Shown here: in pieces, positions 3,206 through 20,000 of the stretch
How positions within the stretch are numbered: the first letter of the stretch is position 1
Layout of the letters: each line of letters opens with the position of its first letter
DNA from: Raillietiella orientalis
Taxonomy: Eukaryota
Length of the DNA stretch: 20,000 nt
Assembly (NCBI GenBank): GCA_036172245.1
Contig: JAYWIR010000025.1
Coordinates: 3,021,570 to 3,041,569 of the forward strand
Direction of reading: 5' to 3'
Notes under the pieces: generated by a model
Seen by the model: only the letters and a program-made list of their open reading frames with translations
Told to the model about the DNA's origin: nothing
Databases searched by the model: none
Translations under genes and position numbers: made by a program

Positions 3206-6153
3206 ATGGTGGCATTTGAAGATCTTGATTTGAATCCAAAATTCATTGAAGCTTTAAAGAAAGTTAAGTATTAAATAGTAGTCAATACTTTAATTTAATG
3301 TAGAACGTAAAACATCTGTTCACATAAGTTCAATTTTTAATTTAATTCTAGGTCGCCTTCTTAATGCAGAAAGTGTGCTTCTTTTTCCACTTGTAGAACT
3401 TCAGAAGAGAACAAAATTAGGCAAATCAGATTTAACAAAAATTATAAAGTCAATAAGTAGATTCATTCTTTCTAAAGCTCCTGTCAGAAGTAAGCAACAC
3501 TGACTCTATATTTATTTTTATCACATATAAGAAATTTTACATTGTGTTTTTGACCATTGATTGCAAAATTTAATAAATCTCCGATTTTTCTCATTTCAAC
3601 AGTGATATGCTTTTATGGAGTTTTCTATTTTAAAGTTCATGTTCACCATCAGAATATTTTATTCTTTGAGTTTAAATTTTAAATTTTCCATTCTGCTTCT
3701 CACTGAGCTCTCTGGCAATTACTTTGTCTTGTCCACCATTTTATGGAACTCTTATTTTATGTTTTTTGCTTTCTTTTATCTTCAAGTATCAGTAAAGCAC
3801 TATTAGCAAGCTCCTCAACTTTTAAATTATGTAGTTTGCAAACATTCAAAAGCAAGTTATAAATGATTCGTTTTCAATACGAAAAAACAAAAAAAACCTA
3901 AAAACAAAATTGCTTGTTGATTTAAGTTATATTATTGTTTTATATGCATTTAAATAAATTTTGCATAAGTTTGCTATCTGTATTACTATCCGTATTATGC
4001 TGTGAATAAACTATATGAATCATTATTTCATTCATGGTACTGAAGGGATAAAAATTGCTTTTGCACTTGTATGTTATTTTCAGTTCCAAAATGAGGACTA
4101 CAATGCACTATTGTACTTTGTTCAAAGAACTACTGCATCTTATTTTAAAGTAACGTTCTATCTATGACTAAGACTGCTATATTGCTATACTAAGTTTTAT
4201 GCAAGTTTTCAAAATAATTTGATGTACATGTACAATTATATATGTCTCAGCATTATTAAAACCAGTTGCTTCATTCAAAACTAGTCTTAGAATTGAGGCA
4301 AAAACATCCTGATAATGAACAGATAGGAATTATTCGGGTCTCCACATTGTGTCCAGTACTTGATGAATTCTTTGGTGGAGGATTTCCATTCAAGGGTTTA
4401 ATGGAAATTGCAGGTGAAAGCGGCAGTGGAAAGACACAGCTGTGCTTACAATTATCTATTGCTGCCCAACTAAGTGGGAAAGAATCAGATCTTAATGGAG
4501 GTGAGAAGTTGCATCTGTTCTTATGAATTGTTGTTTCTCTCACTGATCTCCAGGTGTAATCTATGTTTCTACAGAGAAGGCATTCCCATCTCAACGATTA
4601 TTTCAAATTTTGCATGATTCTTCTGAAGAATGTGATGGGAAACACTCAATGGCACGATTATATTTGGAGCAAATATTTGAACTGGTAGGCTTCATTTTCA
4701 AAGTGAGCAATAAAATTTTGTTTCTGATGACATTAAGAGAGATTGTATTCATAAGAGCTATATGTATGTAGTTTTTGTTTCCACATATACATTCATGTCA
4801 GTTAATGAATTGTTTAGTGAATTATTATAAAACTCGTAAATACTCTTCGGTATTTTGGTAATCTTGACTATATTACAACATACATTAGTGGAATATAATC
4901 AGGTAGCTTATAGAAGTATGGTGAATAGTTTGACTATTGATTGTAGTTGAAACTTAAAATGAAAATTCGAATCTTGGAATGGCTGTTAGCAATTTTAAAG
5001 GAGATGGGATGAAGAATATTATGAATGCAATCATCATCAAATACTGTATTGACAGGACAAGAACCTATTTCTTTCAAAGGGTTTTGTGTTTTTTCTGATA
5101 ATAAGGTTTTGGAGCATATTTGCAGAGCTTTCACATTCAAAGAAATTGTAATTGAGTTTTAGTAATAGTGGATCATTTTTTACTTTAATGAAATACCGAT
5201 TGCTACTTTCACCAATGATTTTTAAGTAAGCATTATTATTATTACATTCTTCACACAGTTCTTGTTACTCTGTATAATTTTAGATAGCTTGCATTTTGTC
5301 TGCATTACTGGTATTCTTGGCTGTAAAATTTTATAGTTCTAAATTTAGTTTCATTTTTCTAACGAAGCTTTCATTTCAGATGAGTTTTATTCAATTTAAT
5401 GGAACACAGTGAAAACACTGATAATGGAATTTGAATGAATGCTAACATAAATACTTATACAATCCTGTGATTGTGGATCATATGATCCACTGAATTAAAA
5501 AGTTTTCTGTTTTAGTTTCAAAAATTATTAGTTTTATTGGCTTATTAGTTCTTAAATTAAAACAATTAACTTTCAAAGAATGCAAATATTTTGGAAAAAA
5601 TATTTCCAGTATCTTGAAGTATTCTATTTCAGGAAGATTTGAAGCACTATTTGGAAAAGAAAGTGCAACCGTTTATTCGAAAATTCAATATTAAATTGCT
5701 AATACTAGATTCTGTATGTGCAGTTTTTAGAGGAGGGGACAAAAGTTTCAGTCATGTTCAAAGAGCAAATGAAATTCAAACAATCGCTTACAGATTACAT
5801 TCACTTATAAGAGAGAACAGAGTTTGTGTTCTTTGTACAAATCAGGTAAACATATTTTCTAAAACAATTTTCGTTGATAATCCTTGTTCTAGATCGGATA
5901 TTCCTCAAATAACATCAACCATTCTTTAGCTGCTTTGGGATTAACGTGGTCTCATTTAATTTCATCAAGATTTAAGATGTGCAGAACAGAACTGATGTTT
6001 CACAATAATTGCATCATCCCATTTTCCAATGAATCTAATGGAGATCGTATTCGGCATATACAGTGTAGTTTTTCACCCTTTTTTCCAACAAAAGCTTGTT
6101 GTCAGTTTATTATAAAAAGTAGTGGTCTGATGGGAATACATATTAGTTTTTAA
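3206..6153 (+). CDS. XRCC3: DNA repair protein XRCC3 (RAD51 paralog)
   Basis: Exons 3206-3263 (donor irregular, see findings), 3352-3489, ~4285-4500, 4554-4684, 5633-5845, 5893-6153. N-terminus MVAFEDLDLNPKFIEALKK resembles XRCC3 MDLDLLDLNPRIIAAIKK. Also CPVLDEFFGGG, Walker A GESGSGKT followed by QLCLQL, VIYVSTEKAFPSQRL, Walker B LLILDS, VLCTNQ and ALGLTWSH. Confidence 0.92.
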
Positions 6154-6250: not shown

Positions 6251-9200
6251 ATGCAGACATTGCAAATTTCTGTGAAAAATTTTAAAAACTGTACTAGCCT
6301 GAAAGTATTTTTAAGATATGAGCATTTAAAATCTTTAAATACAGGACAATTAAGTAAATACCAGCATACTTTGAACATGTTTGATGTCCCATTTCATGCT
6401 AGGGTTTTGGGAAAGGACAGGTTAGCTTTAGATCTTAAAATTGCAAAAGTATGTCGCCTTAGATGTTGACTTGCTTTACACATATTTTTTTAAAATTAAT
6501 AGGAAGCAGAATTTGAATCTTTGTATAAGTGGCAGTCTAATCAATGCAGTATGGATAGTTTTATTTTGCTTGATGGACCACCATATGCAAATGGGAAACC
6601 TCATGTTGGTCATGCAATAAATAAGGTAGTTCAGAATTAAAGTATGTTACTGGTCAAACCATTTCTTTTTTTTTTTCTTTAGATTCTAAAAGATATTACT
6701 AATCGATTCAAGATGTTGAAAGGTTATACAGTGCATTTTGTTTGTGGTTGGGATTGCCATGGACTGCCTATTGAAGCAAAAATAAAAAATGTTTCCAATA
6801 ATGCAGTTGACTTGAGGAGTGCAGGTATCGTTTTAGGAAAACTTAATTTTCATTAAAAACTGTCGTAACTTTTAGCTCTGAAAGATCTGAAACTTAAGAG
6901 CATTGTTCGTGAATTTGATTTCTGTAATTTCTTTGTGGTTTTTATAGTTGTTTGAAGAAGCTATGTACAGCTGAAACTTGCATGCCAATAAATGGCATAT
7001 TGTTCAGATACAATATTAAATAGATTATTCTTGAACAATATGCTATGTAGTTGATGATAAGTAGCTATTATAATACTATTTATTTAGAATGTCATATATA
7101 ATGTTAATATAATCCTAATGCTGAAATGATCTTTCAAATTTGTTGCAAAGTAAATGCATTTTTATTACTGTAATGCATTCTGTATCGATCGTATTTTCAA
7201 GTACACAACACCCAAACAATATTTATGACATCTCATTGATTAATACATTAAAATTGTTACTTATTCAAGATAACTAAACTTTATTCAGTACTCAAAAGCA
7301 TGTTCCACCAAATTGACTTCATTACACTTGTATTGTTTTTGCACAATTCCTTCCAATTATGCATGTACACCAAACTGTTTTGCTAATGTATGCAAAATTA
7401 TAAACATTTGAAGCTGATTATTTCTTGATTAAAGAATAAATAAAAATATTCTTATACTGAAAATTATAACATGGTTTATATGAGATTGCTGCATAATTTT
7501 ATTTGTTCTTTGTTAAATATAATTCATGGTAGCAAAAAGTGTAGCAGCAGAAGCAATTGAAAATCAGAGATCTGCATTTCGACATTGGGGCCTTATGACA
7601 GATTGGAACCATTGTTATTATACTTATGATAAGAACTATGCTGTAAAGCAAATAGAGATATTTTGGGAATTGTTTCAGAAGGTAATGCTTTTCATTAATT
7701 TACAGTAACATACTCTAGATCTCAATCCTAGGGTCTGGTATATCGTGCATATAAGCCCGTGTTTTGGTCTGTTCAGTACAGGTATTATAGTCTTTCAGAT
7801 TTGTGCATCTCTCGTTCTTAAATTTAAAAGTTTGCAATGCGGCATGCTCTTAATATGTTTCATAATACTTTAAATTTTGAAAAATGTAAATTAAAATCTA
7901 TGGATTCAGGTGCATTTTCTTGTCAGTTTCAAAAAGTTATGGGGAACTGGGAAGGAGTTTGTAGCCTAGAGACCACAAGAAACTTTCTTTGGCAAAAATC
8001 ACCGAAATAGTCTTGTATTTTCTGGTCCGAAAATATTAAACGCATGCATACATTATTTACTTCCTAAAATATTCCTTCAGAGATCTCGATGAATCTTGCA
8101 GTTCGGAAAGTATGGCATATGTAGTACAGATACTTAGTACGTGTAACGCCCTTTATAAATTGCATATTCACAGATTAAATATTTTCATTGCCATGTTGTT
8201 TACAAACCAAAAAGTTTCGTTTCCTTATGAGTGTTTGTATATGTAACAATGATTTCCATTCGATTTGTGAATTTCAGTATCATATAAGTATTCTGTTATA
8301 ATATCTAGGGGATAAGCAAAACAAAAATTTATTAATAATGCATGTTTGTAACATTTGCACATTTTAAAAACATCCCAAAGGAGCATCATTCACATAATAG
8401 TGAGCACTATTCAGAGTTTCACTGAATTACGCAGTCTGGCATGAATGGAATTACAGGGAAAAAATATAATCATCATCTGAAAAGTAGTGTATGTATAAAT
8501 CTAGTCAATCTCTCTCCTAATATGTCTGTGCAAAACAAATATTGCAGTCATTATCAGGCCTCTTTTACATCGGAGGCTATAATTGATGGTAGAAATTCAA
8601 GTCAGTCTTTTATTGATTATTTTCATTTTTTCATAAGCTACTTGAAAATTCTTTTCATAAGCTACATGAAAATTTTGGAGAGTCATTTTACACACATGGA
8701 TATCACAGGATAGGTGGGGAGCTATCTTGCAGAAAGTAATATGAAATTTTTGGCCATTGCACTTTAAATACGATATAATATTTACATGTAAATGTATTTA
8801 TCCAAATTGGTAATCACTTATGTGAGTTCTTCTGTATTCAACATTCCACTTAAAATGAAATTGAAACCCAAGTTCACTCATTAAAAATTAATGACGTTTA
8901 CACAATGAAGCTTTGCATATGGCACCTTTGGATGTTTCCATAATTTAAAGGGCTAAGATATCTGATTGAGCTTCAGCAATTTCTTTGTTAAGAGAATAAA
9001 TCATATTCTCATGTTGGGACTAACTTTTTTCTTCTATTTATTACACAGGAGTATTTGAAAATAATTGTTCATCAACAAATGAATTTTTCATTAAGAAATG
9101 TTTGGAGCTATTCTATCACATTTTCAGTATTTCATGGTTTTTGTTATTGTAGAACCGCTTTAGCGGAGGCTGAGTTACAATATGAATCAAATCATCACAG

Positions 9201-12200
9201 CACTTCTACCTACATCAAATTCGAAGTTACTAAGGAGACATTATCTTTTGATTCTCAAGTTTATCTTTTGATATGGACTACTACTCCTTGGAGTCTTCCT
9301 ATGAATGAAGCAATTTGTTTTCATAATGCTGAGACATATGTTATTGTACACAACAAACAATTAAATGAGTTTTATATTATAGCAGAAAAGAGTGTATCCA
9401 AAGTTGAATCAGAAACTGATTCAGTTCTTATTCCTGTATGTTTATTGAACAGTAAGTCACATCAAAAATATTTTTTGGCTTTCTGGATCATGATTTAGTA
9501 TCTTATCAAAAAAATTGGCATTTAATAGTAATGATAAGTTCATAGCATTTGAATGTATTTGTTACTTATTTGAGTAGTTATTGTCTGGCGGTAAATAGGG
9601 TGAATGAACTTTATTGTACAAATTAAATTTTCTTCCAGTAATAAAATACACATAGTAATTAAAAATTTGCTATAAAACTGGACATTATGCAATTTTAACT
9701 ATTCTTTATGCTGAATAATTTACGTATTTTTCAGTGTTTATTTGCATTTATCTAGTCCTATTTAGCATATTTATCAGTGTAAAAAAATTATGAAATGTAA
9801 ATTTTAATTTCCAAAGCCATCTTCTGGACAAAATACATTTGTTAACATCGCCTTTTAATAGTTACGTCTTTATTCTCCTAAAAATGTTCAATAGTATTTA
9901 TGAAAGTTTATGGTCTCTTCCATATGTATGATAGTAAGAGAGTTTTCATTACATTAGTTTAAAGAAACTGTTGCATATATTCAATTGTATGATTACTCCA
10001 TTATTATACTTCTAATTAAAAAACATTCTTGTTCCAGCTTCGATTATGTCCCAACTCAAGTATATTCATCCTTTGAATTCTAGAATTCTGCCTGTAATTT
10101 CGTCGCAACATGTTAATGCTGACACTGGCTCAGGATTAGTTCATACTGCACCATCACATGGCCATGAAGATTTTGTAGTAGCATTGAATAATGATTTACC
10201 ACTGGTTTGTAAAACCTAATCTTTCTAGCAAATAATAACTCATTATTTGCAAATTTGTTGATATCATGTTTCTTTTATTAGAGTTGTCATGTGGATGAGC
10301 AAGGGTTATATACTAAAACGTTAGGAATGGAATTAGAGGGATTATTTGTATTGAAGGAAGGCACAGAAAAGGTTTTACACCTGTTGAAAGATTCTGTTTT
10401 GTCAAAAAAGCCGTTTTTTCATAATTATCCCTATGATTGGAGATCACACAAACCTGTTATTATAAGATCAGATTTGCAGTGGTTTTTTGACACACAGAGT
10501 GTGAAGAAAACTATCTCGGTAAGGTTAGGATTGTCTTATGTAATTTTTTTGTTTGTTTTTAAGAACATCATTCCAAACATCGAAACGCTTCCTGCAAATT
10601 ACGTAAATTGCTTTACTGATTCCATTAAAAATCGTCCATACTGGTGCATATCTCGTCAGAGAGTTTGGGGTGTCCCTATACCAGCGTTTTATAAAAGAGG
10701 GGATTCTAAACCCGTGCTTACAAGGTTATTCGTTTTGTGCTATGAAAAGAACCATTTTAAAGATTTTCATCATTAGAGACTCTGTTGAGTACTTTATCAA
10801 ATTAATTTTGCATCATGGTACTGACATATGGTACAGCTGGCCCATTGAAAAATTGCTTCCGGAGTCCATGAAAAACAATGTCAATGTTGATGAGTTGGAA
10901 AAAGGAAAGGATATAATGGATATATGGTTTGATAGTGGTATCTCTTGGTCAGTAGTTTTGAAATCAAAACAAAGTGCGGATTTATGTATTGAAGGCATTG
11001 ATCAGTTGAATGGCTGGTTTCAGTCTTCTCTTTTATTATCAGCAGCATTGCAAAATGTCTCTCCATTCAAGTAAGTGACAGATTTATAGCTTATAACTCT
11101 TCAGGGTACACTTTAGGAAAATTTATGTGCATTCATTTGCAGTTGATGACAAAAAGCAAAAAATGTCCAAGTCTTTAGGAAATGTATTAGATCCCTATTT
11201 GATAACTCATGGTACAGACACTGTACCAGCAATGGGAGTAGACACGTTAAGGTTAGAAAGAAAGTGTTTATGTACTTTCTTATGTAGTCATAGGTGGTTG
11301 GTAGCATATCATGCAACAAATAAGCAGAGTGTATCTGTAGGAAGTCAGTTACTAAGTGATTGCAATCAAAATATACAAAAATTAAGAAATTGTTTAAGGT
11401 TTATTTTGTGCAACCTCAAAGATTTCGTTTTCAATGAACATGGTCAAGATTACAGTACTTTGAAACTTGCAGATAGGATTATATTGCATCTTTTGTGGAG
11501 GTTCTGGAATCAAGTATGTGACATTTCAAATAACTAACTGACCATGCATTCTTAAAATCATCCTACAGATTATTTCTTGCTATGAAAAGTTTTCATACAA
11601 TGATGTTTGCCATGAAACATTACGACTTGTTTCCCGGGATATCTCATCATTTTATTTCACTGCTGTAAAAGACAGGTGAGAAGATAAGTCTTATGCAAGT
11701 CAAAATCTGTTTATAATGTGTTCATACAAAAAAGAGTGCACTTAATTTTTCCCTTGGCATGTTAAATGTGACATTCACAAATAAAAAATAAATTATATGT
11801 TGTTATAATTAAAAGTAATTCATTGTATAGTTTTTGGGAAAATCGGTTATAGCGAAGTATGCATGCAGGATTGATTGTGGAAAAAAATCTAAAAAAGAAT
11901 TATCAATTTCATGTTTTAAACATTGATTATGTGCCACTGTTCATGAACTTTTGGTTTCTTTTTTTCCAGTCTTACAATGTTTTTCGTGACTACCTCAGAA
12001 TTTTACGTTAATTTTCTAAAAGTTAACTCAAAATGCTGTAAAGGCATTTTCTCATCTATCTCTTATAAAATCACAATAGTGCTTCGTTTTGCTTTGTAGA
12101 CCTTTAATTCTAAATTGAAACTTGTATCCCATAATTCTGTTTTAAATATTCAATATATGTTTCTGCATTACTTTAGACTTTATTGTGATGATGCCAAATC

Positions 12201-12771
12201 CCAATCCAGAAGAAGTAGTCAAACAACTCTTTATTATATTATGAAATATCTGCTGTATGCTATTGCACCAATTTTACCCCATTTGGCAGAAGAAGCATAT
12301 TGTTGCAAACTATTGGAAAATGGTGGGTTTGCTCAGTTATGAACTAAATTATGAAAATTGTAGGAGAACGAGTATTATTCCAAAATAAACTTCCAAATAT
12401 TCCTGAATGTTGGAATCTTGACTACACAAATGTGCTGATACATGCCATCTTTGATTTAAGGAATGAAATAAAGAAGGTGTGTCGAGGTCATTCACTAAGC
12501 ATGAATGCTAAGATTGTTCTCCCCTGTGCACTGTCCACAGTGAAGGTATTTGTAAAATCAAATTCCCAATACTAAAAAATGTTTTAAGCAATATGAAAAT
12601 GAACTTGCTGATATCCTTCAAGTTGCAAAAGTTTCTTTCACTGATGGAGAAGATCTATCAATATCCCTTCAAAAAACATCACTTAGTAGGTGTCACCGTT
12701 GTCGCAAATATGTATGTGTATTGGGTTCAGTTTTGTGCGATAGGTGCACAGTCATACTATCTTGTACTTGA
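6251..12771 (+). CDS. IARS2: Isoleucine--tRNA ligase, mitochondrial (bacterial-type IleRS)
   Basis: 16 phase-consistent GT-AG exons: 6251-6448, 6503-6625, 6683-6824, 7533-7681, 7732-7781, 9153-9451, 10038-10204, 10282-10518, 10564-10724, 10777-11070, 11117-11251, 11294-11513, 11569-11675, 12177-12322, 12364-12545, 12589-12771. Motifs [12 protein letters not shown] (HIGH), [79 protein letters not shown]-terminal Zn finger CHRC..CDRC. A basic N-terminal extension before KYQHTL fits a mitochondrial presequence; the start codon is less certain. Confidence 0.95.
8628..8674. repeat. Short tandem duplication (2 x 23 nt) in IARS2 intron 5
   Basis: ttttcataagctacttgaaaatt (8628-8650) and ttttcataagctacatgaaaatt (8652-8674), one mismatch. 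Confidence 0.8.
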
Positions 12772-13870: not shown

Positions 13871-14028
13871 TCTTCAAATGGTATCTGTAAAATAAAGTAT
13901 ACATGAAGGCATTGGGATATGCAGAAACAATTCCAATTAATTAATAGTTCGTATGTGGTATGTATACTTTATTTTAAACATACCATTTCAAGAACTATTA
14001 ATTAATTGGAATTGTTTCCGCATATCCC
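13871..14028. repeat. Interleaved inverted repeats A-B-A'-B'
   Basis: A 13871-13904 vs A' 13960-13993: 31/34 reverse-complement match. B 13914-13950 vs B' 13992-14028: 36/37 match. Confidence 0.9.
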
Positions 14029-14392
14029 CATACTTTCCGCCTCCCAAGAAGACGTACAGAGAATTTCCATCTTTGCTGTAACTTGGATGATCACTTTTGG
14101 TGTGCTTCTACATGGAGTTTAGGCTCCCATCCTGAGAGGCGCGTCGTTCCGCCACCGACGAGGTGGTAAAGGGTAATCCAGCTTGAAGCCCATTTCGGCA
14201 AACCAAACTTACCACCACACCACAAGGCTATGCATCCCCAAGAGGTGCAACGTGCCTTGCGAGTCAACGACCCAATGGTGAGTTGCTCGTCCGCCTCACT
14301 ATCAAGCGCGGAGCAGGCGATGCACCTTTTCCGTTTTCCGTAACCAAAAGCAGATTTTGCGAGTGTGGAAGTGCGGACTTTGGAGGGCAGAA

Positions 14393-16011
14393 ATGCCTGA
14401 AGACTCCGCAACACCTGCGACGGGAGTCGTGACACCCACGTCTCCCTAACCCATGGAGATGGGGTCATGTCCCACCACAAAATCAGCCCCCGCCGCCCCG
14501 GCGAGGGCATGGAATAAAGTGGCCGCGGCGGCTCCGCCGGATGTGGCTGCAGAAGTGCAAGCCTACATTAAGGAAGGCTACAACCCTGCCCTGCTTTACA
14601 AGGTAGGGAATTTATACTCACCGCTAACTACGCGGAAATTTGGTAACGCCATCCGTAGGATGGGCATTACAGAGGAGGAGATTCTGTGCTTCTCGGTACG
14701 GAGCGGAGGGCAGTTCGCGGAGCTCATCTGCAGAGATGCAGTGCTCACACACAAACTGCTCTGCACGCCCGTTCCTTTCGAAGGGCGGAATCTCCTCCCA
14801 CACACGGTGGATCACTCGATAGTGATCCACCTAACCGGAACAACAGTGCGGATGAGCTACGAAGCCATCCGCACTGAAATTAACAAGTTCGCGGAGATTT
14901 ACGCGATGTGGAAGAAGCCCAACGCCTTCACATATAGAGGCGCATTTAGTGGGCGACTTGCCGCTCGCGTAACTCTCTGCGACAATGTTGAAATTCCCCA
15001 CAAGCTGGAGATTAATGACGAGCTCGTTGATCTCTGGCACATGGGGAAAGAAAAATGCTGCGGGCTGTGCAACACGTTTGGTCATCTCAAAAAGAGATGC
15101 CCGGACGCCACATGCCCAACGTGCGGCGCTAAGGGCCACACTAGCGTTGTGTACCCGAAAAACGCCAATACAACGCCGGAATCCCCGACAACAAAAGAGG
15201 GGAAGAAGGCAGAAAACCAAACAAAAAGCGACCAACAGCCAAACTCAGAAGAAGCCGAACAGAAGGAGCAGGAGACTCAAAAGGAGACTTCTGAAGCAAC
15301 TGTCGGCGAGGAGCCTGGAAATTAGTCGCAAACAAAAATACAAAAACTCAAACTTTCAATAATGAAAAGCCTAAAAACTCTACAATTCAGAAAGCGAGCA
15401 AACCGAAAAAAACCGCGAACGGCGCAAAAAAATTACGCCGCGCGAAATAATAAAGGAATGCCGCGTTAACATCGGGCGCGTTCCGTCGATCGATCGTCGA
15501 ACGCGACTCCCGCAACCGTCGCGAACGCCGCGGAACCGCCGCAGGAAACCTGCGAGAAAGATGCGTGCAGCAGCGACGAGAAAAACTTCGCGAAGACGGC
15601 GGAGGAACTCGCGGCCACCTTAATGCAGCCACCTAAGGCTGCAAAGAGAAGGCCGTGAGACGTCCGGAGGAAGCCAAAGGACCGGAAACTTCGGAGTCCG
15701 AGGCGGAAGCCGGAAACGCTCCCACCGTCGCCCTCTCCAAGAGGAAGGCTGGCCGGAAGTCCCGCAACCCCATGCGCGTCGCTCCCCCTCAGGCTGAGGA
15801 GGAGGAAATGCGCTCGGGTAGCGAGGAGGCGATGTCCGCCAGGTCGCGGGATCCCTCCTTGGAAACCGTCCGGTCCGATCTTCCGATCGACCTCAGTCCG
15901 GCTGCCGACGTTCCGGACGTTGCGGAAACGCCGTCCATGCAGGTGGACATCGACCAGCCGCCTCCCGAACAGGAGGCGGCTACACAATCGCCACCACCAT
16001 CATTAGCATGA
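14393..16011 (+). pseudogene. ORF1 (gag-like, 2 zinc knuckles) of U1, disrupted
   Basis: ATG 14393 (MPEDSA, homologous to U2 MPEDTA), in-frame TAA 14447-14449, ORF 14453-15325 with CGLCNTFGHLKKRC and degenerate CPTCGAKGHTSVVY, TAG at 15323-15325. Frameshifted segments homologous to U2 follow (REIIKECRVNIGRV, FAKTAEELAATL, AGRKSRNP) up to TGA 16009-16011. Confidence 0.85.
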
Positions 16012-16290
16012 TGCGTGGAATCGCCTCCTGCCGGCAGCTGCGTATAGCCTGTTGGAATGTCAACGGGCTGCGTAGCGAAAGCAAGAGGCGTTGCATGGCC
16101 GACACCCTGCGACCTTTCGACCTGGCACTTCTCCAAGAGGTTCACGCCCTCAGGAGAGGGAACGTCCAGGAGATCGAGAGGCTCACAGGGGGAAGGCTAC
16201 TTTGGCGATCCGGTGGAGACCACTCCCGCGGAGTGGCCTTCCTGCTGAAGCCAGCCGTCGCAAAGGCAGTGCGCAGTGTACAGTTCGACG
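16008..16290 (+). pseudogene. ORF2 N-terminal AP-endonuclease fragment of U1 (about 94 codons, truncated)
   Basis: MMRGIASCRQLRIACWNVNGLRS..DLALLQEVH..SRGVAFLLK..VQFD. Homology to the U2 endonuclease ends at 16290, where the minus-strand 3' end of R1 begins. Confidence 0.88.
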
Positions 16291-16960
16291 TTTTCACCCG
16301 GTCAAGCCGGGGCGTTTATTTAAAAACTAACAGTATTTGCAGTACAAGGCCCTGCTGCGGATAATAGTTCTATGGAGCTGTCTGGTGGTCAGTGCACAGA
16401 CCGACATAACACTCCACGTCAACGGATGGGGTTAGGGAAAAAACAAAAATAAAAAAAAATAAAAGGTAGAAACACTTGTCAATTGGAGGGCCGGGAAGGG
16501 ATCACTGCCCGTTGCGTGGAGCTTCCATCCTTTTCAGGATGCCGACGAGGTCCTGGTACAGATTTCCCAGCTGGGGCCATCGGGATGCTATCCGCAGAAA
16601 GCGAGCAGCAAACTCCATGGCGTCCCTTTCGTTAATATCCTCTGCTTCGTCGGATCCACTCCAAGCTGCCACGATACCGCGAACGCAGCAGAGAGCTGTG
16701 ATTACAGCGGCTGGCTGCATTGCGTCCCGCACGAAGAGGCGCCGAAAAACGTCTCTGGGAAGGCTACCTTCCAGGATCCCTAAGATGGAACCGAAACGTT
16801 CCCACAGAGGCCAGAGGGCTGCACAGTCTATTAGAAGGTGCGGGAGGGTTTCCCGCTCCCCACACCGGGCACAGTTTGGGTTTACACTTCCCCGTGTCGT
16901 TCTAGGGAGCGGACGTGGTTTGGCATCGCTCCACGGACTGGTTAGTGGGAAGCTTTTCGT
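16291..16960 (-). mobile_element. L1/Tx1-like 3' terminal fragment (R1): ORF2 C-terminal zinc-finger region, ~207-nt 3'UTR, AATAAA and A4 tail
   Basis: Minus strand reads EKLPTNQ (frameshift) ..PNCARCGERETLPHLLIDC..WPQLGN..RNGQ* (stop 16502-16504), matching the C-terminal CCHC/zf-RVT region of L1-clade ORF2. Then a U-rich UTR, AATAAA (16315-16320) and AAAA (16291-16294). Confidence 0.85.
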
Positions 16961-16993
16961 TGGTTGTCTGGTGTGTGGGAGCACCGGTGTCCC

Positions 16994-18711
16994 ATGGCAG
17001 AAATGCCTGAGGACACCGCGATGGAAGTTGGAGGAGGAGAAGCGACACGCTCTCCTCCACCAATGAAAGTGGGGGCATCCTCCCCCACGGAATCCGGAGC
17101 ACTTGCCCCCTCGGAATCGGGGGCAACCGCCCCTTCGCGACCCTCTTCGCCATTGGCGAGGAGTTGGAGTGACGTCGTTGCTGCACCATCCCCGGATGCA
17201 GTAGCGGAGCAGACTGCCTACAAGGACAGCGGCTACAAGCCGTCTCTGATCTATAAGGTAGGCAGTGTGTTTGATGAAAAAATTGCACGCTCCTTCGAAA
17301 TGGAGCTGCAAAGGCTGAACGTGAGGGAGGAAGACCTTTTAGGCCTATCCGTCCTTAGTGGGGGCCAGCGAGTTGAGCTGACATGCAAAGAGGCAAGTCT
17401 GGCGCAGCGACTGCTGAACACCCCTATTACGGTGGACGGCCGCAGGATCTTCCCTGTGACGGAGGACCGCTCCGTCGTGGTCCACCTCACAGGTGTATCA
17501 CTCCGAATGGACAAAACCAGCGTCCATGAGGAGTTGTCGAAGCATAGTAGTGTGCACGCGTATTGGGCCAAACCCAATGTCTTCCGAACGTACGGAAGGC
17601 TATTCAGTGGGATGGCCGCAGCCCGTGTCACCCTACCAGAGAATGGTGGGCTTCCCCACAAACTGAATATCGGCAAAGAAAAAGTCGATGTTTGGTACGT
17701 GGGTAAGCCCAAGTATTGTGGCCATTGCGATGCTACAGGGCATCTAAAAAAGCGGTGCCCTAACATCCAATGCCACTTATGTGGAAATAAGGGCCACATC
17801 CGTCAGGTGTGCCCAAGAAGAGAAATCCCGCCCCCATCCGCTGCAAAAAAGGCAAAGGGGAAACGCACGGGAGAGACGCATAAACAGAAACAGGCTGTAA
17901 ACACCCAGATGCCAGTCCCTAAGCCCTCACAGCAAACGTCGGTTGAGAACACTCCCGACGACGCTGGTGACGGCGAAGGCTGGCAGACGGTACAGCCACG
18001 AAGAAAACCCGGGAGTCCCGAACGAAACGCGGTGAAAACAAAAACGCAGCGCGAAAAACCGTGCCGCGAAAAGCTCCGCGCGTGTTCGGTAAAATTAGAA
18101 CGTGTGGAGGCACTCGATGCCGCCACCGGGGGAGCAATCCCCCCCCTCGCGTCCGCCGAAGCCGCGACGGTCGATGGCGAACCCTCTGGCGAAACAGAGG
18201 GGGAACCGCGCGCCGCGCTCGACGCGATCGAGGAGGCCGCCTTCCAGCAGGTGATGGAAGAACTCACGGCTGAACTGCAAGGCCGTGAAAAGAACTCGCG
18301 AAAAGGCTTGCGAAGGCCGGCCGCGAGGAAGGCTCCGGAGGCAGGTGAGGCCGATCCGGACGTCGAAAGTGCATCCTCTTCAGCGGAGGCGCCACCAAAG
18401 AAGACGGGACGTAAGTCTCAGAATCCCAGGAGGCGCATCCGGATCAATAAGGAGGCGGATGAATCGGCCCCGAGGGGGAAGCCGGCAGCGTGGGAGGCGA
18501 GGGTGGGAATATCTCATTCCCCGACACCGTGCAGCTAGCGACCCCCATGGAGGAGGATGTGCAGGTGGGTGAACCCCTACTTCCTCTGCAAGGCCCCGAC
18601 GACGAATCGTCCTCCATGGAGGAGGGAGAAGCGGTGCGCGACGCACCCCCTCCTCCTAGCGTCCCGCCCGACAAGGTGGCGGGAGCCCCATTGCCAATTT
18701 CCCAGGATTAA
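16994..18711 (+). CDS. ORF1 (gag-like nucleic-acid-binding protein, 2 CCHC zinc knuckles) of U2; apparent frameshift near 18480-18510
   Basis: Open from ATG 16994/17003 to TAG 18538, with knuckles CGHCDATGHLKKRC and CHLCGNKGHIRQVC and a long low-complexity tail. The shifted frame 18490-18711 matches the U1 ORF1 C-terminus and ends overlapping ORF2. Confidence 0.82.
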
Positions 18712-19563
18712 CACCTGGACTCGCCTGTCGCCGTAGGATACGCGTAGCCTGCTGGAACGTCAACGGGCTGCGCGATGACGGCAACAGGCGGGACATGGCC
18801 GACACCCTGCGTGACTTCGACCTGGCACTCCTGCAGAAGATCCACGTGATCACCGCGGAGAACGCCCAGGAGATCGAAAGGATCGCAGAGGGTCGTCTAT
18901 TTTGGCAATGCGGCGCTCGCAACACCTGTGGCGTCGCGTTTTTTATGAAGCTAGCAGTCGCTTCCTTCGTCAAGCACGTACGATTCGACAAGGACAGTCG
19001 GATCGGCCAGCTTATCCTTAGGTGGTCCGACTCGATCGACCTTGTCGTGACTAATGTGTACGCTCCGAGCGGAGGACGCGGGTACGGGGAACGTTCCCGG
19101 TTCCTCGAAACCCTGAAGCGCGACTGGCTGGCGGATACAAACGTACGCAAGGCACATCTGATCGGTGGGGATTTCAACATCCGCCTGCTCTCAGGTGTGC
19201 CTTGCAGGCAAAAAGACGCAACCAACGAGTTGTGCGCCGCTATGCGTACGCGCAACTGGCTGGGGGACCTACCGGAAATGGCCCAAAGCGTAGACCACGT
19301 CTTCCTTGACGCCGACCTGTGCCCACGGGTCGGCAGACGAGAGAAACTTCCGTCGACGCTATCGAACCACTTCCGGTTGATAATCGAAATTATGCCAAGC
19401 GACAAAGGACCACCATCCAGGGCGTGGCGTATGCCAGGGGACTGGACGCGCATCTCCGGTGCAGCGGAACATCTCCGTCAGTTCCTGAGAGGCGTCATCC
19501 TCCGCAACCTCGAAGACTGGGACCGCATGAAGGTCTCGGTCCGCGAGTTCTGCGAGGATTTCC
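18708..19563 (+). pseudogene. ORF2 AP-endonuclease domain of U2 (no stop; catalytic substitutions; interrupted before RT)
   Basis: RVACWNVNGLR, LLQKIH, CGVAFF, VTNVYAP, LIGGDFN, VDHVF, LSNH, AWR, WDRMKVSVREFC. Absent from the ORF track, probably because the frame has no stop before the window end. Confidence 0.88.
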
Positions 19564-19597
19564 CTTTGCACCGCCTGCCCCGGGGATTTGGTGTTGC

Positions 19598-20000
19598 CAC
19601 CCGGGTACGCCGGGGGCGTTTATTAATAAAAAACTCTACAATCGCGGTACCAGGCCCCGCTCACGGCCTTATGCACGGGACCTACCGGGACGCCGGGACG
19701 CAGCCCGGCGTGGCACTCCCCGGCAGGGAAAGGGGATGGGGAAAAACAAAAGTAAAAATAAAAACGCAAACAAACAAAAGAGGTTGGAGGGCAGGCAAGG
19801 GATCACTGTTCGCTGAGACGAGGGCCCATCCGTTGAAGGAAGCCCTCGAGGTCCATCCGTATGTTCCCCAGCTGGGGCCATCCAGCAACTCTCCGCAAGA
19901 AGCGTTGGGCATATTGGATGACATCCCTCGCGTGTTGACCCACTCCTTCCTTGTTGGTGTCGCTCCATGCCGCCACGATGCCTCGGACGCAGCACAAGGC
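19598..20000 (-). mobile_element. L1/Tx1-like 3' terminal fragment (R2): ORF2 C-terminus and ~205-nt 3'UTR, continues beyond window
   Basis: Minus strand LCCVRGIVAAWS..RFLRRVAGWPQLGN..SEQ* (stop 19803-19805), homologous to R1. The UTR shares CAGTGATCCCTT..GCCCTCCAA, a U-rich tract, AATAAA (19619-19624) and terminal CGCCCC..CCGGGTG. Confidence 0.85.

Follow-up and report, generated by a model that had tools for sequence, protein, structure and literature searches.

Both the targeting of other transposons and self-nesting are already known among long interspersed nuclear elements (LINEs). Tx1 LINEs of crocodilians (Tx1-Mar, Tx1-8_Crp, Tx1-4_AMi and Tx1-9_AMi) prefer fixed positions and orientations in Mariner, Harbinger and long terminal repeat (LTR) elements, and their SINEU partners form tandem copies around a duplication, with a target-derived 5′ extension (PMC4494074). 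The Zepp element inserts in a nested fashion into existing copies (PMC8226300). These and the other published systems are cited here from portions of the papers concerned. We analysed a window of 20,000 nucleotides (G000:C25:3021570-3041569), the terminal 20 kb of contig C25 of Raillietiella orientalis, the right-hand part of which is a nest of LINE copies in alternating orientation. The nest is composed of four lineages of one GC-rich L1/Tx1-like LINE clade, and we consider that it was probably built by lineage-specific, leaky site targeting among sister LINEs, and neither by self-insertion nor by a local trap.

The units were mapped onto an intact natural copy of the clade (L015, contig C13), whose second open reading frame (ORF2; 1115 aa) encodes an endonuclease, a reverse transcriptase (RT) and a zf-RVT domain. 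Their order along the window is U1(+), R1(-), U2(+), R2(-), as a first-pass annotation of this DNA had proposed; they are joined by three junctions, one more than the two interruptions that it had counted. The features are as follows.

14339..16289, plus strand: U1, slightly 5′-truncated, with the remaining 5′ untranslated region (UTR), a broken ORF1 (stop at 15323-15325) and the first part of an apurinic/apyrimidinic-type (APE) endonuclease
16278..16290, plus strand: Site C, codon ~110 of the U1 endonuclease, interrupted by the R1 3′ end
16290..16886, minus strand: R1, the 3′ part of a second lineage, with the zf-RVT end of ORF2 (stop at 16502-16504), the 3′ UTR, AATAAA and a GC hairpin, and no poly(A)
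16887..16911, plus strand: Site B and the U2 leader, 25 nt with which U2-type elements begin and which copy the zf-RVT target in antisense
16911..19593, plus strand: U2, a third lineage with a full 5′ end (GGACGTG start), ORF1 and a complete endonuclease, then cut in the endonuclease-RT linker
19580..19593, plus strand: Site A, the P-R-G-F-G codons of the U2 endonuclease-RT linker, interrupted by the R2 3′ end
19594..20000, minus strand: R2, the 3′ end of a fourth lineage (3′ UTR, hairpin and final ORF2 codons), which runs off the contig
14040..14338, no strand assigned: a GC-rich segment outside U1, without another match in the genome search or in the fetched loci

Homology of U1 to other copies begins at 14339-14366, and fuller 5′ ends are present in L140-L150; the start of the array must accordingly be moved from 14040 to ~14339. 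The first junction lies at 16289|16290 (±1), in agreement with the cut previously placed at 16290 in the U1 endonuclease. At the junction that had escaped the earlier count, the 5′ end of U2 cuts the zf-RVT coding region of R1 antisense at ~16886-16911; the zf-RVT C-terminus of R1 has a Pfam E value of 0.029, under the Pfam cut-off. U2 has an ORF1 with an ATG at 16994 (the 16946 frame stops at 18536-18538) and an endonuclease in which two catalytic-motif residues are changed. Its cut at 19593|19594 falls within the interval first suggested (~19563-19597), and the domain has to be corrected: it is the GFG codons of the linker, past the endonuclease domain, that are interrupted. Uninterrupted U2-type copies continue to their 3′ end in C15 and C8. 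At the window locus the right half of the nest cannot be read, because the contig stops at window position 20000. U1 and U2 (endonuclease) and R1 and R2 are each 68% identical, so that the divergence claimed earlier for both pairs holds. U2's own 3′ end, as seen in an uninterrupted copy, is 71% identical to R2 and merely 72% identical to R1, which rules out twin priming, that is, R1 and U2 as a single inverted insertion. A U1-type tandem (L149) has yet another 3′ end, unlike the others.

The elements are L1-group non-LTR retrotransposons, with the ORF1/ORF2 composition, the 5′ truncation and the target-site duplications of variable length that characterize this group. Both U1 and U2 encode an ORF1 with two CCHC knuckles, whose Pfam matches are below the cut-off, and an APE endonuclease (Exo_endo_phos, E 1e-4 and 5e-9). 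In the intact relative L015, Pfam matches Exo_endo_phos (E 1e-12), RVT_1 (E 3e-18) and zf-RVT (E 0.004); the RT lies outside the window. The best solved-structure match is human L1 ORF2p (E 5e-47, versus 8e-11 for the R2 structure). For ORF1, Atlas matches (0.93) point to clusters in which zf-CCHC and ZCCHC3-type RNA-binding domains occur (in 82-84% of the members of hit 3), a lead only to a putative RNA-binding part. A poly(A) tail, which marks the L1 clade in the narrow sense, was found in none of the 60 sampled 3′ ends; the ends are precise and stop ~24 nt past AATAAA, and the hairpin there is conserved, yet its fold is no more stable than that of shuffled sequences (z -1.3). The closest database protein is a metagenome fragment (71%), and an RT tree with 16 database matches, none of them a named Tx1 reference, resolves only the joining of two local families with one metagenome protein. 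In their lineage-by-lineage target preference the elements appear, on genomic evidence, to behave like target-specific Tx1 LINEs.

A search of the same genome with window positions 14000-20000 gave 72 matches from 35 scored candidates, and the breakpoints of these matches pile up at window positions 16287, 16878 and 19593. The block 16284-20000 recurs at 86-97% identity on many contigs, and like nests lie on dozens of contigs, which makes the special trap beside housekeeping genes suggested in the first-pass annotation superfluous. The genome was searched for the 3′ hairpin with two exact patterns, which gave 534 and 186 matches, the reversed controls giving 0; because of these counts and of the recurrence of the junctions on many contigs, the nest is beyond chance. 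The first 30 matches of each pattern in contig order were taken as a sample (n=60) and compared with 400 background tiles from 20 random 8-kb stretches over 37 contigs (125 Mb of 210 Mb), a clade match being scored within 150 nt. Flanks of the same clade were found at 29 of the 60 ends and in 26 of the 400 tiles (p 8e-15); against the GC-rich tiles only, the background is 21 of 192 (p 3e-9). A flank test of the kind proposed with the first-pass annotation thus gave a clear enrichment, and the nesting in relatives that it had inferred stands. Antisense insertion proves to be a bias rather than a rule, since 15 of the placed ends are antisense and 14 are sense; five of the latter belong to tandem arrays whose spacer copies Site A, itself an antisense site. 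In the second hairpin class, 10 of 30 ends lie at Site A or its leader copy, and another six lie at one sense site in the ORF1 of another lineage. On a tree of 38 alignable ends the target label changes four times (mean of shuffles 13.7; 0 of 2000 shuffles reach four), a comparison that overstates independence, as kin share labels, and that shows association only. The targeting is leaky: roughly half of the ends are at other positions and have in common only a 4-5-nt start (C-N-C-C or C-N-T-C). In the same sample, one lineage has landed three times at the same site of another repeat (L031, L039 and L048).

Were these nests copied as blocks, or were the same sites struck repeatedly? We compared the identities of host and insert on both sides of each junction. 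For Site B, 30 U2-type 5′ ends were fetched, and the 16 with an adjoining antisense zf-RVT host were kept, the other 14 being tandem arrays, duplicates or other sites. Among the 120 pairs, 28 have inserts that are at least 93% alike in hosts that are at most 75% alike (e.g., 99% versus 70%). U2-type elements that are 98-99% alike therefore sit at one zinc-finger site as separate insertions, not as copied blocks, because their hosts are only ~70% alike. Of 12 R1-type 3′ ends, eight interrupt the same endonuclease codon at Site C, with inserts 82-94% and hosts 55-93% alike, and the other four lie elsewhere; a complete R1-type copy at this site (L034) is flanked by a target-site duplication of 9+ nt. 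At Site A the same nucleotide has been used by at least three insert lineages, namely the R2 lineage, its sister group and a third lineage 77-82% like R2. Among five ends of the genome-order sample there (L068, L074, L082, L084 and L088), the hosts are 67-91% and the inserts 76-98% alike. Two alleles of the U2 site, TG and AG, each contain R2-type copies, and each is also found empty. The patterns of host and insert at the three sites need separate insertions, and the identities at the junctions rule out R1-U2-R2 as one mobile unit as a general cause. The resumption of the host with a target-site duplication, which had been predicted, was seen at other loci; in C117 a whole U2 insertion is visible and the host resumes after it. 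Copies of the R2 lineage are themselves cut at recurring places (reference positions ~2800, 3131 and 4043), and the chain of inserters and targets therefore continues.

Among relatives of the inserters themselves, an occupied linker site is very rare. Site A was searched for with a pattern permissive for either type of host; it gave 188 matches, of which the 100 listed were sorted by hand. Of these, 20 are hosts with the Arg codon (U2-type), eight of which contain an insert at the site, as against 1 of the 80 others (p 5e-6). The latter group includes the inserters' own kin. For example, the element with the 3′ end L068 has its own copy of Site A at C4:24483, 2.9 kb upstream of that end, and the end itself sits at Site A of another host. 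Self-targeting, first suggested as one possibility, is thus not supported: the units are four lineages, 68-72% alike, and the own site is mostly spared.

Several marks bear on how the insertions were made. Copies with 5′ truncation are flanked by target-site duplications of 8-16 nt that start with C. The antisense leader is common to nearly all of the 30 U2-type 5′ ends, whatever the host, and in C8 a full-length U2-type copy that lies in AT-rich unrelated DNA, with a separate 9-nt duplication, still carries it. The RNA of the element therefore seems to include donor flank sequence, and the tandem arrays would arise because each U2-type insertion recreates a target via its leader. The stretch of the endonuclease that aligns with the L1 hairpin loop, to which a role in specificity has been ascribed (PMC1950540), is one of the more variable stretches among eight lineage copies (0.33 versus a mean of 0.59; rank 16 of 231 windows).

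We propose that these L1/Tx1-like LINEs have undergone a radiation specific to this genome and transpose by target-primed reverse transcription. Several of the lineages would each prefer one short site within the coding sequence of a sister lineage, usually in antisense orientation: R1-type elements the endonuclease codon ~110, U2-type elements the zf-RVT codons and R2-type elements the GFG linker. Russian-doll nests and tandem arrays would then grow wherever a copy lies, because each new copy offers another lineage a site, and the window would represent the left half of one such nest. The endonuclease may well select the site as the element inserts, assisted by base pairing between the nicked DNA and read-through RNA bearing the donor flank, and landing in dead or rival copies of transposable elements (TEs) may be favoured because host genes are spared. 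Several observations weigh against lineage-specific targeting, besides the kinship of labels in the tree. Five U2::R2 junctions, including that of the window, are 96-99% alike on both sides, and the U2 and R2 trees are star-like; the junction at Site A in the window may belong to one copied composite. The identity of the hosts rises weakly with that of the inserts (rho 0.26 at Site B and 0.44 at Site A), and a clean complete nest was not found at Site A, where in C5 another host resumes. Nine of the 29 placed ends are plain sense insertions, and for 31 of the 60 the flank could not be assigned to the clade, some of these flanks sharing unknown repeats and one being a host-like gene with an RNA-recognition motif (RRM). 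The low occupancy of the linker site may partly reflect younger hosts, and two other stretches of the endonuclease are more variable than the one aligned with the loop.

What else could direct so many insertions to the same nucleotides? One possible, tentative answer is a memory held in RNA, in which the endonucleases are loose, read-through transcripts pair their donor 3′ flank with a nicked homologous host, and the site is inherited from the parent copy. The precise ends that lack poly(A) and the U2-type leaders that reach unrelated DNA are what such a mechanism would leave, and R1Bm requires downstream target sequence for accurate reverse transcription (PMC7265360); against it, insertion at the same site tolerates hosts 55-70% alike that differ at several of the first 10 nt, and the two unrelated sites used by one pair of lineages (L059 versus L030/L060) have nothing but a C-N-C-C-A start in common. 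Because hosts with several mismatches are struck at the same base, the endonuclease is slightly favoured over read-through pairing as the likelier cause of site choice, as far as this can be judged from the sequences. It is improbable that a few insertions were multiplied later, as composite nests copied either through segmental duplication or when an outer element retrotransposed together with the copies inside it. The recurring block and the five evenly matched U2::R2 junctions would be expected from such copying, some flanks are plain duplicates (L062/L063, L069/L070 and C198/C21), and C31 and C91 have a common internal deletion in their R2-type copy; the near-identical inserts in hosts 65-75% alike, the distinct insert lineages at one nucleotide, the R1-type copies in unrelated flanks and the existence of empty alleles nevertheless show that it cannot alone account for Sites B and C.

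A regional trap, such as heterochromatin or a locus resembling a PIWI-interacting RNA (piRNA) cluster with selection for antisense copies, acting together with a mere 4-5-nt nicking motif, seems quite unlikely. It would account for the GC-rich flanks (54 of 60, versus 192 of 400 background tiles), for whole small contigs that are TE nests and for the short motif common to off-site ends. At the fine scale it is refuted: a single copy has 385 C-N-C-C sites, and at least five hits at one site occurred in 0 of 200,000 draws of 14 (the class has 12 real non-tandem placed ends). It also leaves the lineage-specific sites and the spared linker of the other hosts unexplained, and the alternating strands provide no single antisense strand for a piRNA precursor. 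An assembly artefact has a very small chance of being the explanation. The nest does reach the contig end, and the contigs of the one DNA run listed (share 0.07; no RNA run is listed) cover it in pieces only, none of which bridges the junction at 16290 or 19594 among the matches listed (8 of 141), a result that speaks neither way; the same junctions, however, occur with different point changes inside many other contigs, together with duplications and intact 3′ ends. Lineage-specific targeting remains our preferred reading. That it amounts to a guild of sister LINEs, each exploiting a conserved coding motif in one of the others, mostly resistant at its own version of that motif and inheriting its landing site through flank-bearing RNA, is a speculation that we put forward with some doubt.

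Other repeats are associated with the clade. A second, distant LINE family (L013:1-3672 and L014:6762-9998), with 28% ORF2 identity, groups with the clade in the RT tree and is also struck by R1-like ends (L049). Four short elements (L011, L035, L065 and L086) have only the 3′ hairpin in common with the LINEs, with duplications ~190 nt upstream; they are candidate passengers resembling short interspersed nuclear elements, and several of them sit in LINE copies.

The DNA to the left of the nest is of a different kind. The left ~14 kb of the window are AT-rich (25-35% GC) and contain compact genes with introns, the products of which have arthropod proteins as their best named matches (~45-58% identity), which points to an invertebrate animal with no near relative represented in the matches; in the composition scan of the window the GC content rises to 48-65% at ~14001-14040. 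A compact multi-exon gene for a mitochondrial isoleucyl-tRNA synthetase occupies ~8990-12770 (+), its 3′ limit being ~1.3 kb before the nest, and 5618-5929 (+) is an exon of a Rad51-family gene fragment, which we take to be XRCC3-like. An inverted pair of 49 nt (4229-4277 and 9302-9350; 90% complementary, 5 kb apart) has its second arm inside the synthetase coding region. At the nest edge, 13871-14037 forms an AT-rich, near-perfect long hairpin with nested inverted repeats (DNA fold z -10.8), which is single-copy in the genome search and could be a foldback remnant or a microRNA-like hairpin. A scan of the window with Rfam gave three matches, every one far below the gathering score, including a mir-55 match to this hairpin. 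The adjoining ~300 nt (14040-14338) are probably the outermost host remnant or flank. In the genome as a whole GC content is bimodal, with 151 of 320 random 500-nt tiles (L119-L138) at 48% GC or more, while the LINE clade makes up only ~6% of bases; one 3′ flank (L069) is a GC-rich, host-like RRM gene. As so many random tiles are GC-rich too, we discarded the GC-richness of flanks as weak proof of TE targeting.

RNA genes, microsatellites and transposons of other classes are known targets of site-specific LINEs, and the present observations add to them the reading frames of sister LINEs. Close lineages (~70-87% alike) with different sites provide a natural panel for asking whether protein or RNA sets the target choice of a LINE, a question that bears on LINE-based tools for gene insertion. 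Because insertion into the ORF2 of a rival kills that copy, conflict between TEs becomes testable from one genome. Should the guild reading be true, the lineages would make up a network of hyperparasites, transposons that disable one another and create safe havens for themselves.

Our literature search, which covered the field in part, found no paper on LINE lineages that target each other's ORFs; the target tables of PMC4494074 may list such cases. The crocodilian Tx1 elements, as the portions of PMC4494074 cited here describe them, are likewise APE-type LINEs with a leaky preference for a fixed position and orientation in transposons that differs by family. Their targets are Mariner, Harbinger and LTR elements, whereas here the targets are coding motifs of sister LINEs, targets and inserters form a chain, and the sites of the own lineage are mostly spared. 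Tx1L of Xenopus laevis, which inserts into Tx1D, is also an APE LINE that lands in another mobile element (PMC1950540, PMC4494074). According to the same partial sources, it has a sequence-specific endonuclease and one stringent DNA-transposon target, in contrast to the several leaky targets within one LINE clade that we read from the genome only. For R1Bm and SART1Bm, downstream target sequence in the RNA aids accurate priming, which offers a model for tail-less, precise 3′ ends; in the available portions of PMC7265360 these elements belong to the R1 clade and differ in having ribosomal DNA or telomere repeats as targets. Zepp and ZeppL of green algae resemble the present elements in that an L1-type LINE nests in existing copies and forms clusters, described in the parts of the reports cited as tandem 3′-end arrays of one family with one cluster per chromosome (PMC8226300, 10.1101/2022.06.16.496473). 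Here, the 3′ ends are dispersed, with 23 matches along contig C1 for example, and the hosts are other lineages rather than same-strand copies of the same family, tandem arrays occurring at the captured leader. Unlike those of Zepp, the nests in this genome lie on many contigs and are cross-lineage, mostly antisense and built at codon-precise sites.

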